IMG/VR virus record: IMGVR_UViG_3300020045_016121
Coordinates: 1 to 39,277 of that record
From: a virus
Taxonomy: Duplodnaviria > Caudoviricetes
DNA length: 39,277 nucleotides
Direction: 5' to 3' (one strand)
In this document: piece after piece, positions 1-39,277 of the stretch
Layout of the letters: each line of letters starts with the position of its first letter
Position numbering within the stretch: the first letter of the stretch is position 1
Program-made: the position numbers and the translations under genes
The notes under the pieces: generated by a model
The model's input: the letters and a program-made list of their open reading frames with translations, nothing else
What the model was told of the DNA's origin: nothing
The model's database searches: none

Positions 1-121
1 ATGCAAATGGAATTTTGACAAGAGCTAATCCTAATGCAAGCAATAATCTTGAAATTATCATTTCTAATAGGATTCAAGGAACAACTTCTACTGTGGGAGC
101 TGTGACTAGTCCTATTATTAC
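1..121. repeat. Terminal direct repeat (121 bp), identical to 39157-39277; circular assembly overlap
   Basis: ATGCAAATGGAATTTTGACAAGAG...CCTATTATTAC is present at both ends and the reading frame continues across the join. Confidence 0.97.
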
Positions 122-413
122 ATTTACTCCTACAGTAATCGGAACATATGCGATTGAAATTAGAGTGTCAGCATATAACACTACTTCAACACTAGGAGCG
201 GGATATAGCATTTTTGGAACAGCAAGATTTGACGGCGCAAATTCAAATCTTTGTGGAACAGCGGATAAAATTGTAAATGAAGAAGGAGCTATGTCTTCTG
301 CTAATTGTACATTTACAGTTTCAGGAGCAGATATATTAATAAATGGTGTGGGATATGCTGCACAAACAATTAATTGGTCGGCCGTGGGATTATATACTTT
401 TATGGGGGCATAA
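1..413 (+). CDS. 3' part of a virion/tail-associated protein that starts at 39018 and wraps the join (183 aa in total)
   Basis: ORF 15..413 is in frame with TTG at 39018; Thr/Gly/Ser-rich, beta-strand-like sequence inside the fibre operon. Confidence 0.8.
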   Translation, partial: ANGILTRANPNASNNLEIIISNRIQGTTSTVGAVTSPIITFTPTVIGTYAIEIRVSAYNTTSTLGAGYSIFGTARFDGANSNLCGTADKIVNEEGAMSSANCTFTVSGADILINGVGYAAQTINWSAVGLYTFMGA

Positions 414-1369
414 TGGCTGGTTTTGAAAATGATATTGTATTTGCTTTAAATGGAGATTTTACACAAGCAGATAATCAAGCACCTGTAGAAGCAAATGGGT
501 TAGTGACTGACGGGGATTTGTGGATTGGATCAACTGCATTAAATGCAGGATCTACCCATATTAATGTAGGGAATATTACTTCTCCAGGTGGAAGTATAAC
601 AGTTGGATATTCTTCTCCAAATATTACTATAGATGTGGCAGGAGGTGGAACTGCTATTGAACAAATTACAGTGGATAATTCTACCGTTCCCGGTACAAAT
701 CCTGTATTGCCTTTGACTGGAAATGTAACAATTACAGGTGGACAAGTATCTAATGCTTCATTAGCCAACGTAATTCAAACTCATTCTGTTGCTGCAAATT
801 CGTTTGCGATTCAAATCCAAAGAGCAACAACAGCAGCAGCCACAGATAGTACAAAAAATGGTGTTTCTCACTTTAATTCAGCTCAATTTACAGTAGATGC
901 AAATGGTTTTGTAAGCACATCCGGAACTGGTGTTCCAAATACTATTACCGGAGATAGTGGAGGTGCACTTAGCCCAGCAGCTGGAAATTGGAATGTTTTG
1001 GGGCTGTCTGGAAGCAAAACTTCTGGATCAGGTTCAACTCTTACAGTTAAAAGTCCTCCATTTTCTCAAGTTGGTGCTAGTGCAACAAGTTCTTTAAATA
1101 CTGGTGAATTTGTAACGGCAGCTGTTACAAGAACATTGCCAGCATCAGTTGGACTTGCGGATGGTGATTTATTTATATATGTTTGCACAACAGCAGGAGC
1201 ACTTGTTATTCAATCAGTAGGTGCTCAAAAGATTAGATTAGGAACTTCTATAACAGCGGCTGCTGGTGCGATTACTAGTACAGCCATAGGTGACTCTATT
1301 ACACTTAGATTTAATGCTACTGATGGTTTCTTTTATGCAGTTTCTTCAATAGGAAATTGGACGTTCTAA
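413..1369 (+). CDS. Tail fibre protein
   Basis: ATG overlaps the upstream TAA (TAATG); Gly/Thr/Ser-rich with fibre-like segments (FNSAQFTVDANGFVS; C-terminal TRTLPASVGLADGDLF...GNWTF). Confidence 0.7.
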   Translation: MAGFENDIVFALNGDFTQADNQAPVEANGLVTDGDLWIGSTALNAGSTHINVGNITSPGGSITVGYSSPNITIDVAGGGTAIEQITVDNSTVPGTNPVLPLTGNVTITGGQVSNASLANVIQTHSVAANSFAIQIQRATTAAATDSTKNGVSHFNSAQFTVDANGFVSTSGTGVPNTITGDSGGALSPAAGNWNVLGLSGSKTSGSGSTLTVKSPPFSQVGASATSSLNTGEFVTAAVTRTLPASVGLADGDLFIYVCTTAGALVIQSVGAQKIRLGTSITAAAGAITSTAIGDSITLRFNATDGFFYAVSSIGNWTF

Positions 1370-2052
1370 TGACAACAAATAATTCAGCAAATATACCTAC
1401 CGGATCAAGTGGAAAGTTTGCTCAAGGACAAGGAGCAGGAGTTGCACTTAATTTAAGTACAGCAACATATCCCTCCACTGCAACAGGAACAGGAAAAATA
1501 TTAAGAGCTGATGGTACAAATTGGGTCCCTTCAACGGCCACCTATCCTGATACTTCCGGGACAAGTTCAAATGTTTTAACATCTGATGGAACAAATTGGA
1601 TTTCATCTCCTTTTAGCGGAAATGATGGAATTACAACTGTTTCGGGATCTTTAACTAATGCTCAAATCAAGGCACTTCATGGAACTCCTGTTTTATTTTT
1701 AGCTGCGCCAGGTGCAGGAAAAGTAATTAGAATTGTTTCAACAGTTGGAAAAATGAATTATGGCGGATCCAATGTATTCACGGCAGGATTAAGTCAAACA
1801 GTTTCATTGTATTATGGTGCTCCTACTACTTCCATTAGTCAATTAGTTGGAAATGCTCAAATTGTTGCTTCAAGTACCCAAATAGTAGGAGCAAGACCAG
1901 AATTTTTTGCAACTTCTACTGGTTCATATGCAAATGCAGCCAATCAAGCTGTATATATATATAATCCAATTGCGACAGAAATATCTGGAAATGCAGCTAA
2001 TAATAATACTATAACCTATAGTATATCTTACCAGGTAATAACAATTCCTTAG
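1369..2052 (+). CDS. Tail fibre/receptor-binding paralog 1 (227 aa from ATG 1369)
   Basis: TAATG coupling; two TYP..G..L.(A/S)DGTNW repeats followed by a globular C-terminal domain; paralog of the next two genes. Confidence 0.7.
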   Translation: MTTNNSANIPTGSSGKFAQGQGAGVALNLSTATYPSTATGTGKILRADGTNWVPSTATYPDTSGTSSNVLTSDGTNWISSPFSGNDGITTVSGSLTNAQIKALHGTPVLFLAAPGAGKVIRIVSTVGKMNYGGSNVFTAGLSQTVSLYYGAPTTSISQLVGNAQIVASSTQIVGARPEFFATSTGSYANAANQAVYIYNPIATEISGNAANNNTITYSISYQVITIP

Positions 2053-2059
2053 GAAAATA

Positions 2060-38675: not shown

Positions 38676-38684
38676 AGGAAATAT

Positions 38685-39008
38685 ATGGCGATCAATAATA
38701 GTCAAAGATGCATAGCTGCTCCAGAACTTACAACAACCATGAATGGAAGTTTTAAGTTTATCGGCACACTTGTAGAAAGTCCGGCCATTATCATTTTTGA
38801 TAATCAAGGAACAGATGCAATAGCCATTTCCTTAGATGGTGGAACTACGACATGGAGAACTTTTCCAGCTGGGGAGGCTCTTGTTTTAGATTTGAGAGCA
38901 AATCATGGAATAGCTCCTAATTTTACATTTGATAAAGGAACTGCATTTCATGGAAATGGTGCAGCAGGTACATTTTCAATTTCCTATGTTTATGCTAAAA
39001 ACTCGTAG
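38685..39008 (+). CDS. Small virion/fibre-associated protein
   Basis: AAGGA Shine-Dalgarno; beta-rich 107 aa in the fibre operon. Confidence 0.6.
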   Translation: MAINNSQRCIAAPELTTTMNGSFKFIGTLVESPAIIIFDNQGTDAIAISLDGGTTTWRTFPAGEALVLDLRANHGIAPNFTFDKGTAFHGNGAAGTFSISYVYAKNS

Positions 39009-39017
39009 AGGTATAGA

Positions 39018-39277
39018 TTGAGCCAAATATATAAAACTATGGGGGGAGGCGGTCCTATACCTCCTACTGTGCCTACTTCTTTTGTTACGGATGACGGAAC
39101 GGCAATTCCAGCTTTGAATATTCTTAATATTGAAGGAATTGATTCTACAGAAAATAATGCAAATGGAATTTTGACAAGAGCTAATCCTAATGCAAGCAAT
39201 AATCTTGAAATTATCATTTCTAATAGGATTCAAGGAACAACTTCTACTGTGGGAGCTGTGACTAGTCCTATTATTAC
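39018..39277 (+). CDS. 5' part of the wrap-around gene (continues to 413)
   Basis: GAGGT at 39008 then TTG AGC CAA ATA...; [31 protein letters not shown]... is open through the terminal repeat. Confidence 0.75.
39157..39277. repeat. Terminal direct repeat, copy 2
   Basis: Identical to 1-121. Confidence 0.97.

Follow-up and report, generated by a model that had tools for sequence, protein, structure and literature searches.

A podovirus-like phage genome with a chlamydial-type dif site and its likely host among environmental Chlamydiota

The IMG/VR virus record IMGVR_UViG_3300020045_016121, a stretch of 39,277 nucleotides that was analysed over its whole length and is called the window here, holds the genome of a tailed double-stranded DNA phage and raises the question of which bacterium this phage infects and how it is maintained there. 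No integrase family was recognised among the window proteins, and a single site of the dif type lies between genes. We conclude from the sequence that environmental Chlamydiota are the most likely hosts of the phage, and that it probably persists via the host recombinases XerC/XerD acting at its dif site. A chlamydial host had already been proposed in a preliminary description of this DNA. The proposal is supported by evidence not contained in that description, namely the dif site, a related prophage integrated at dif, Pgp7/8-like and chlamydial Xer-like recombinases in close relatives and best matches to chlamydial plasmids. The chlamydial phages named in the literature, as far as covered by PMC8466579 and PMC5010888, are single-stranded DNA microviruses.

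The dif site and the likely host

The site (9439-9466, minus strand) was identified by pattern match as ACGTCTGATAA TATATC TTATGTCTTTT. It is intergenic and present in one copy, and no dif-type site arose in 100 shuffles of the window. Its layout is 11-6-11 with a canonical ATAA-N6-TTAT core, and the outer XerD arm departs from the consensus. The site is identical to the chromosomal dif of genome G049 over 25 of 25 nt and to that of G074 over 24 of 24 nt, central hexamer included. The pattern GTCTGATAA-N6-TTATGT occurs in 138 of 151 Chlamydiota genomes (the phylum of G001), mostly once and with no match for the reversed control, compared with 3/201 genomes of the class of G002, 2/21 of the phylum of G003 and 0/5 other metagenome-assembled genomes (MAGs); the group names of the compared sets were inferred. 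The supplementary table of Kono et al. (2011; PMC3025954), in the part available, gives the arm for 14 of 14 Chlamydiae and for five further entries, and in four of these five the full pattern is found. Exactly one site, with up to one mismatch, is carried by 27 of 50 close relatives (the near-complete ones of 56 chosen; control 0/50), and in the near relatives L214, L247 and L250 it is kept at the same place while the flanks diverge to about 73-77%. Among 119 IMG/VR loci with a strict site, only 80 of which had long flanks, 47 encode a relative of a window protein and 40 at least two.

Genes in common with chlamydial replicons add to this evidence. The preliminary description reported two small transmembrane (TM)/coiled-coil paralogs with the motif EMKDFH.RLC.IEE (13441-13647 and 35539-35727, both minus strand) and associated them with environmental chlamydial genomes. 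Both statements hold: the motif has exactly two matches in six frames, and a profile of 10 paralogs matches 8 of 300 genomes of Chlamydiota, as against 0/41 in the order of G002 (with some genomes of 0.3-0.4 Mb, probably not Legionellales proper) and one weak match with stops in 111 genomes of the phylum of G647. The strong matches are lone genes amid housekeeping genes, with one on a phage contig; the chromosomal neighbours are presumably tgt/tdk, cydAB, rpe/efp and ftsY. Weaker relatives occur in multiple copies in one chromosome, beside U-box/RING-like genes. The family comprises 6,353 clusters, its single named homolog stems from a 32-kb contig of a Saprospiraceae MAG, and the search of plasmids with a small paralog gave no match. 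Atlas neighbours are all viral, and one carries the automatic name 'putative Holin', which is a lead only. Since hosts keep lone copies, we speculate that these proteins act in entry exclusion rather than as holins. Genome G112 (L100, L108, L110, L112, L114, L115) has seven chromosomal copies of a longer relative, repeatedly adjoining small U-box/RING-like genes and once a transposase.

Effector-like cargo had likewise been taken as pointing to Chlamydiae, and a membrane U-box architecture is indeed found there. The gene at 10357-11370 (minus strand) encodes a predicted E3 ligase with a membrane hairpin, in which a Ser-rich N-terminus and a hydrophobic segment (residues 102-127) accompany the U-box (PF04564, 29.2 bits at a cut-off of 21.4). 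It has 11 other close clusters, and a profile found TM plus U-box homologs in 18 of 200 Chlamydiota genomes. Ten of these were inspected and look chromosomal; in most of them the U-box is likewise preceded by a hydrophobic, Gly-rich hairpin. The adjoining gene (11377-11904, minus strand) encodes a 175-aa protein without family assignment and, by hydropathy, with a single TM segment. The two genes, 0.9-2.4 kb away from the dif site, are encoded on the other strand than the early operon and are also linked in L214 and L247. In a relative with a portal of another clade they accompany the site, and we read this joint travel as cargo-like behaviour. Among 72,556 plasmids, the best match of the single-strand annealing protein Bet/RecT (4745-5521, minus strand; PF03837), whose best matches had been suggested as a check of host taxonomy, is the chlamydial plasmid pSn of Simkania negevensis (54.9% identity, E 1e-54; next 39.9%); the best named phage match reaches 41%. 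For the PD-(D/E)XK exonuclease (5575-6138, minus strand; Pfam/PHROGs) the sole plasmid match is that of Criblamydia sequanensis (32.6%, E 4e-21).

Environmental Chlamydiota are thus assigned as host with high confidence, and two other kinds of host were weighed. A free-living host that shares the dif arm (Desulfobacterota, Nitrospirota or Zymomonas) appears very improbable. The full pattern is present in four entries of the Kono table that are not chlamydial, one contig with a close capsid gene was binned in a Nitrospiraceae MAG, and the viral contigs with a dif site include some that are GC-rich and unrelated. Such a host would leave the U-box cargo, the Pgp7/8-like integrase described below and the chlamydial plasmid best matches unexplained, and the near absence of the small-protein profile from the phylum of G647 speaks against it as well. 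We judge it just as improbable that another intracellular bacterium (Legionellales, Rickettsiales or Dependentiae) is the host and swaps genes with Chlamydiae in amoebae. U-box and F-box cargo would suit any amoebal symbiont, two related phage contigs were binned in G003, a 1.1-Mb genome outside the phylum of G001, and one in a MAG labelled Legionellaceae. Against this stand the dif sites of these groups: according to the sections available, Legionella dif arms have no homology to known Xer motifs (PMC9765430), and the sites of Rickettsiales, which end in TTATGGAAA, Francisella and Amoebophilus differ from the chlamydial one (PMC3025954). The pattern is also missing from G003 itself, rare in its phylum, and the small-protein family is absent from the order of G002.

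Several results weigh against a chlamydial host. The excerpted table lists the arm also for Thermodesulfovibrio, Syntrophobacter, Desulfococcus and Zymomonas (PMC3025954), and the genome controls left out named Desulfobacterota, Dependentiae and Legionellales. The best plasmid matches of Rep and terminase are not chlamydial. The structural model of the U-box protein is of low confidence (pLDDT, the predicted local distance difference test, 50.6), its U-box/RING structural matches having E>0.1. Portal matches occur in 6 of 401 Chlamydiota genomes, five of them on phage-only contigs, in a search that covered Chlamydiota with no control phylum. Close capsid genes were found in 14 GTDB loci, on short or phage-sized contigs of unrelated, taxonomically scattered MAGs, of which only one is Chlamydiia; we read this as mis-binning that holds little host information. 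MAG binning was accordingly rejected as host evidence, the hosts being scattered and the phage binned in G257 differing from the chromosomal dif hexamer of that genome. Nor did CRISPR spacers yield a convincing link: 345 chlamydial spacers from 13 arrays, compared with 3.2 Mb of the window and its relatives' loci, gave no near-full-length match (best 20/35 nt). We found cas1 in 16 of 300 Chlamydiota genomes, and one paper on Chlamydiae notes that no targets of chlamydial spacers were known. Two further host markers named in the preliminary description proved uninformative. The tRNA-Gly(TCC) found by tRNA scan (21444-21516, plus strand) is 70-77% identical to chlamydial tRNAs and 75% to that of Novosphingobium, and it was not kept in 60 related loci scanned. 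The protein with a C-terminal sigma-70 region 4 (16394-17164, plus strand; PF04545) reaches 48-51% across 70 residues with sigma factors of Chlamydiae, in a comparison that covered these factors only.

Possible integration, plasmid-like maintenance or lytic growth

How the site might be used is indicated by genome G290, which encodes the chlamydial histone Hc1. On its 137-kb contig C1, a block of about 36 kb in window gene order is matched by 16 of 62 window proteins, some via a shared small domain. Its two ends are marked by a direct repeat of 17 nt (41,995 and 77,706). This repeat is the dif core in G290, with an intact left and a degenerate right site, and no integrase was seen within the block. 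The flanking genes (waaA, pfp, kdsB-pyrG-ruvX and zwf-opcA-pgl) have counterparts in the same order on either side of the empty dif in G049, on a chromosome of 2.1 Mb. A search for related prophages in chlamydial MAGs, as the preliminary description had advised, therefore succeeded in part: it revealed this distant prophage at dif and no member of the close clade. A phage-only contig, G257:C19, has 21 of 62 window proteins in common. The loci L146 and L217 were rejected as independent relatives, since at 99.98% identity their DNA is that of the G290 prophage. At G290:C1:75710-78703 a SocA-like antitoxin and membrane-protein cassette is duplicated; one copy belongs to the prophage and the other lies immediately beyond its right end.

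Tyrosine recombinase genes are absent from the window and present in 2 of 50 close relatives, both of which lack the dif site. The recombinase of L051 (3699-4640; L362), a phage with a capsid protein 89% identical to that of the window, is of the Pgp7/8 type and matches 133 plasmids, 112 of them from Chlamydia, at 38-40% identity. According to the available part of Koestlbacher et al. (PMC7846284), the Pgp7/8 family is found on chlamydial replicons only and originated from viruses. The second relative, G794 (L361:1444-2316), has its own chlamydial-like Xer recombinase and no canonical site; the best match of this recombinase scores 212-258 bits in each of five Chlamydiota and 172-183 bits in five controls.

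Persistence that depends on Xer is thus likely on the sequence evidence. That host XerCD recombines the phage site with the chromosomal dif for lysogeny is the reading that we slightly favour, because the window hexamer equals those of real chromosomal sites, a relative has integrated like this and the two relatives above have recombinase genes in place of the site. The main rival is that the phage resides in a chlamydial host as a plasmid prophage, in which the dif-like site would only resolve multimers in the manner of cer or psi. We regard this as less likely than integration, yet as a real possibility. It draws on the window's ParB-like and ribbon-helix-helix (RHH) genes, on a ParA-type ATPase in two related loci, and on the Criblamydia plasmid and contigs with ParA and primase genes, which bear dif-like sites. 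The central hexamer, moreover, equals a sampled chlamydial site in only 6 of 27 relatives (counted by eye), the others matching no sampled host. Against plasmid maintenance stand the same three observations that favour integration and the lack of any ParA family match in the window. The initiator of the window is lambda O-like. Both integration and plasmid-type resolution need a Xer system of the chlamydial type. A third reading, in which the phage is strictly lytic in a chlamydial host and its site is a relic or a Xer/FtsK decoy, seems improbable. Relatives without either site or tyrosine recombinase (21 of 50) and the deviating outer XerD arm would fit it, but the site is kept in place while its flanks diverge, and repressor-like and excisionase-like genes are present.

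Some of these findings also count against integration at dif itself, namely the relatives that lack both site and recombinase, the few hexamer matches and the different dif hexamers of the G257 chromosome and the phage contig binned with it. In addition, the G290 prophage is a remote relative (25% identity in the portal, 21% in the capsid) that forms a long branch outside the window clade in a quick tree, and no integrated phage from the portal clade of the window itself was found. The portal tree is unrooted, came with long-branch warnings, lacks rows for 4 of 46 selected loci and was used only for the distance of G290.

Dif-like sites were also seen at the border between phage-like blocks and ParA/primase plasmid blocks in the Criblamydia plasmid (L349:23253), in two Chlamydiota contigs and in one IMG/VR record (set L302, L303, L305, L210); in a third contig, L305, the site adjoins the plasmid block. 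This arrangement suggests that phage was joined to plasmid through Xer.

A life cycle consistent with these data can be proposed. A short-tailed virion would eject its DNA into the chlamydial cell, where the DNA would circularise. Lytic growth would proceed from the lambda O-like initiator and its iterons with recombination by Bet and the exonuclease, and in lysogeny XerCD integration would leave one intact and one degenerate site, as in the G290 prophage. Alternatively, though with lower probability, the site may resolve multimers of a plasmid-like prophage. The U-box gene would be a cargo of chlamydial type; for its product, export by the host and action on the eukaryotic ubiquitin system are predicted. 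Should the host have a minimal wall, release would not require a classical endolysin.

Known systems and extent of the phage family

The nearest parallel in way of working, with no sequence link from the capsid and portal searches given below, is the Legionella phage LME-1. As described in the parts available (PMC9765430, PMC12407071), LME-1 is a temperate phage with a short tail whose host is an intracellular bacterium associated with amoebae; the phage carries a dif mimic and integrates at the host dif, after which one site is intact and the other modified, as at the G290 prophage. It differs in its host phylum, in the use of the single recombinase XerL and in perfectly symmetric 10-bp arms unlike Xer motifs, whereas the window site is of the XerC/XerD type. 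IMEXs, mobile elements that make use of Xer to integrate, such as CTXphi, TLCphi and the dif-type double jelly-roll vibriophages, share with the window the lack of an integrase, a dif-like attP and dependence on host XerC/D, the last two predicted for the window from sequence. In the account available (PMC12715192) they are non-tailed phages or satellites of Vibrio, unlike this 39-kb tailed double-stranded DNA phage. With regard to the features of IMEXs, the window has an 11-6-11 site that matches chlamydial dif and no integrase of its own; a dif-integrated copy was seen for the distant G290 only.

Chlamydiamicrovirus members (Chp1-4, phiCPG1, phiCPAR39) have the host phylum in common with the window phage, but are described in excerpts of PMC8466579 and PMC5010888 as small circular single-stranded DNA Microviridae of about 30 nm that infect Chlamydiaceae, with no shared architecture. 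At 39 kb and with terminase and portal, the window does not belong to them. That tailed-phage DNA has reached Chlamydiae is indicated by the 'phage group' genes and Pgp7/8 of chlamydial plasmids (PMC7846284, in part). The phage block of the Criblamydia plasmid encodes an exonuclease related to that of the window and begins beside a dif-like site. It differs in having a tail tip protein L and is not described as a free phage in the part of PMC7846284 available; within the 40 kb examined, this plasmid gave no portal or capsid match. P22-like podoviruses with a capsid of the N4-gp56 family resemble the window in portal family, adaptor, likely ejection proteins and a lambdoid early region. P22 has its own integrase and endolysin, and in this the window differs, where neither is recognisable. 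Larger phage particles are reported from older electron microscopy of Neochlamydia and of chlamydia-like organisms of bivalves, work that our literature search did not return. Searches of the open-access literature brought up no family of tailed phages of Chlamydiae, although closed papers or database host fields may hold one.

Relatives of the window are numerous. Its capsid protein has 269 confirmed relatives among IMG/VR stretches, the best 80 being 82-95% identical and the longer contigs measuring 35-45 kb, and a search of protein clusters gave 999 matches among 2,405 candidates. No capsid relative was present among 50,697 GenBank phage records. The structural block is conserved across capsid-relative loci. 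The portal found Ralstonia phage Gerry as its sole GenBank phage match, and two solved portals are weakly similar; a 182-aa core protein had no Atlas match above 0.82. The capsid gene is intact in the window and interrupted in many relatives (L086, L090, L091, L071-L076, L078, L080). In the early and cargo arm, which the near relatives L214, L247 and L250 have in common with the window, nucleotide identity is 65-79%, yet the portal of L214 is only ~31% identical, as in module exchange between structural clades.

We tentatively propose that the window represents a large, worldwide and undescribed family of temperate podophages of Chlamydiota with XerCD integration at dif, shuttling of membrane U-box/F-box cargo and of the small proteins (some 6,000 clusters) among chlamydial genomes, lysis without a classical endolysin and a lineage that donated Pgp7/8 to chlamydial plasmids. 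A common, likely temperate tailed phage would provide a route of gene flow into obligate intracellular Chlamydiae and a candidate source of the viral plasmid integrase Pgp7/8. It would extend tailed dif-using phages beyond LME-1, and the dif arm would be a simple sequence tag by which orphan phage contigs, in their hundreds, could be assigned to Chlamydiota. Phage entry and exit for a bacterium inside an amoeba, and dif as a neutral integration site in environmental Chlamydiae, become testable.

Genome organisation of the window

Bases 1-121 are identical to 39157-39277, an assembly overlap that closes a circle of 39,156 bp with a GC content of 34.5%, and IMG/VR classes the record as 100% complete with direct terminal repeats. 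The closed, AT-rich genome noted before is thereby confirmed. The former view of it as podovirus-like stands in part: portal and adaptor were found, and the short tail is proposed from the lack of tape measure and sheath family matches among the 62 window proteins scanned with Pfam and PHROGs. As expected of Caudoviricetes, the window encodes a large terminase, a portal and an HK97-type major capsid protein, the capsid fold by family assignment only. The earlier failure to recognise an endolysin was repeated in the 62 proteins and in representatives of 150 of 473 clusters of relatives' accessory proteins, which include an F-box protein and an outer-membrane barrel protein.

On the plus strand, the late region begins with a small terminase-like gene and the large terminase (14121-16291, the latter at 15023-16291; Pfam/PHROGs), followed by the P22-like portal (17214-19355; PF16510, E 2.7e-47) and the major capsid protein (22716-23696; phrog_1357), whose relatives are assigned to the N4-gp56 family by the Joint Genome Institute (JGI). 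The segment 23698-31617 probably forms a head-tail and short-tail module, judged by podovirus gene order, with FCCH-domain proteins, an SU10-like adaptor (match below cut-off) and a 1103-aa nozzle-like protein; a 64-residue FCCH stretch matches a 'major tail protein' PHROG. Structural proteins at 23698-31138 match the FCCH family of ubiquitin-activating enzyme E1; the matching domain probably is a beta-barrel decoration of a generic kind. Three proteins of 227, 225 and 771 aa (31667-35339), taken as likely ejection proteins by position and size alone, presumably correspond to P22 gp7/gp20/gp16, and the 771-aa protein is 60% identical to one on G257:C19. An 878-aa repetitive fibre-like protein with a 107-aa companion (36039-39008; open reading frames and repeats) and putative tail-fibre or spike genes (374-3436), so named for position and composition, complete this strand; the latter include three paralogs (231, 228 and 227 aa; repeats D1/D4), and proteins of the region are 33-36% identical to a G290 prophage protein. 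The reading frame at 15-413 in fact begins upstream of the circle junction and runs from 39039 to 413 across it (176 aa).

Among the remaining genes, a Cro/repressor-like helix-turn-helix protein (6662-6910, plus strand; phrog_35) precedes the lambda O-like initiator (7073-7996, plus strand; Pfam/PHROGs). Three 23-bp iterons lie inside the initiator gene (7443-7511), a lambda-like origin arrangement. The Arc/ParG-like RHH regulator (11985-12137; Pfam/PHROGs), the ParB-like protein (21514-22281; phrog_12305) and the excisionase-like HTH_17 protein (35727-35930; Pfam/PHROGs) are encoded on the minus strand, and a collagen/BclA-like protein on the plus strand (12247-12975; PF01391, weak PF18573). 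One relative has a tRNA with a stop suppressor-like anticodon TTA according to ARAGORN (L089:7968-8043). A promoter scan of the window was at chance (40 seen, 35 expected). The palindrome TGTAAA-N5-TTTACA occurs four times, at 3635, 6328, 14674 and 26000, between genes or at gene ends, and in 25 of 80 family loci versus 0 of 17 chlamydial genome stretches, and is a candidate operator or terminator.

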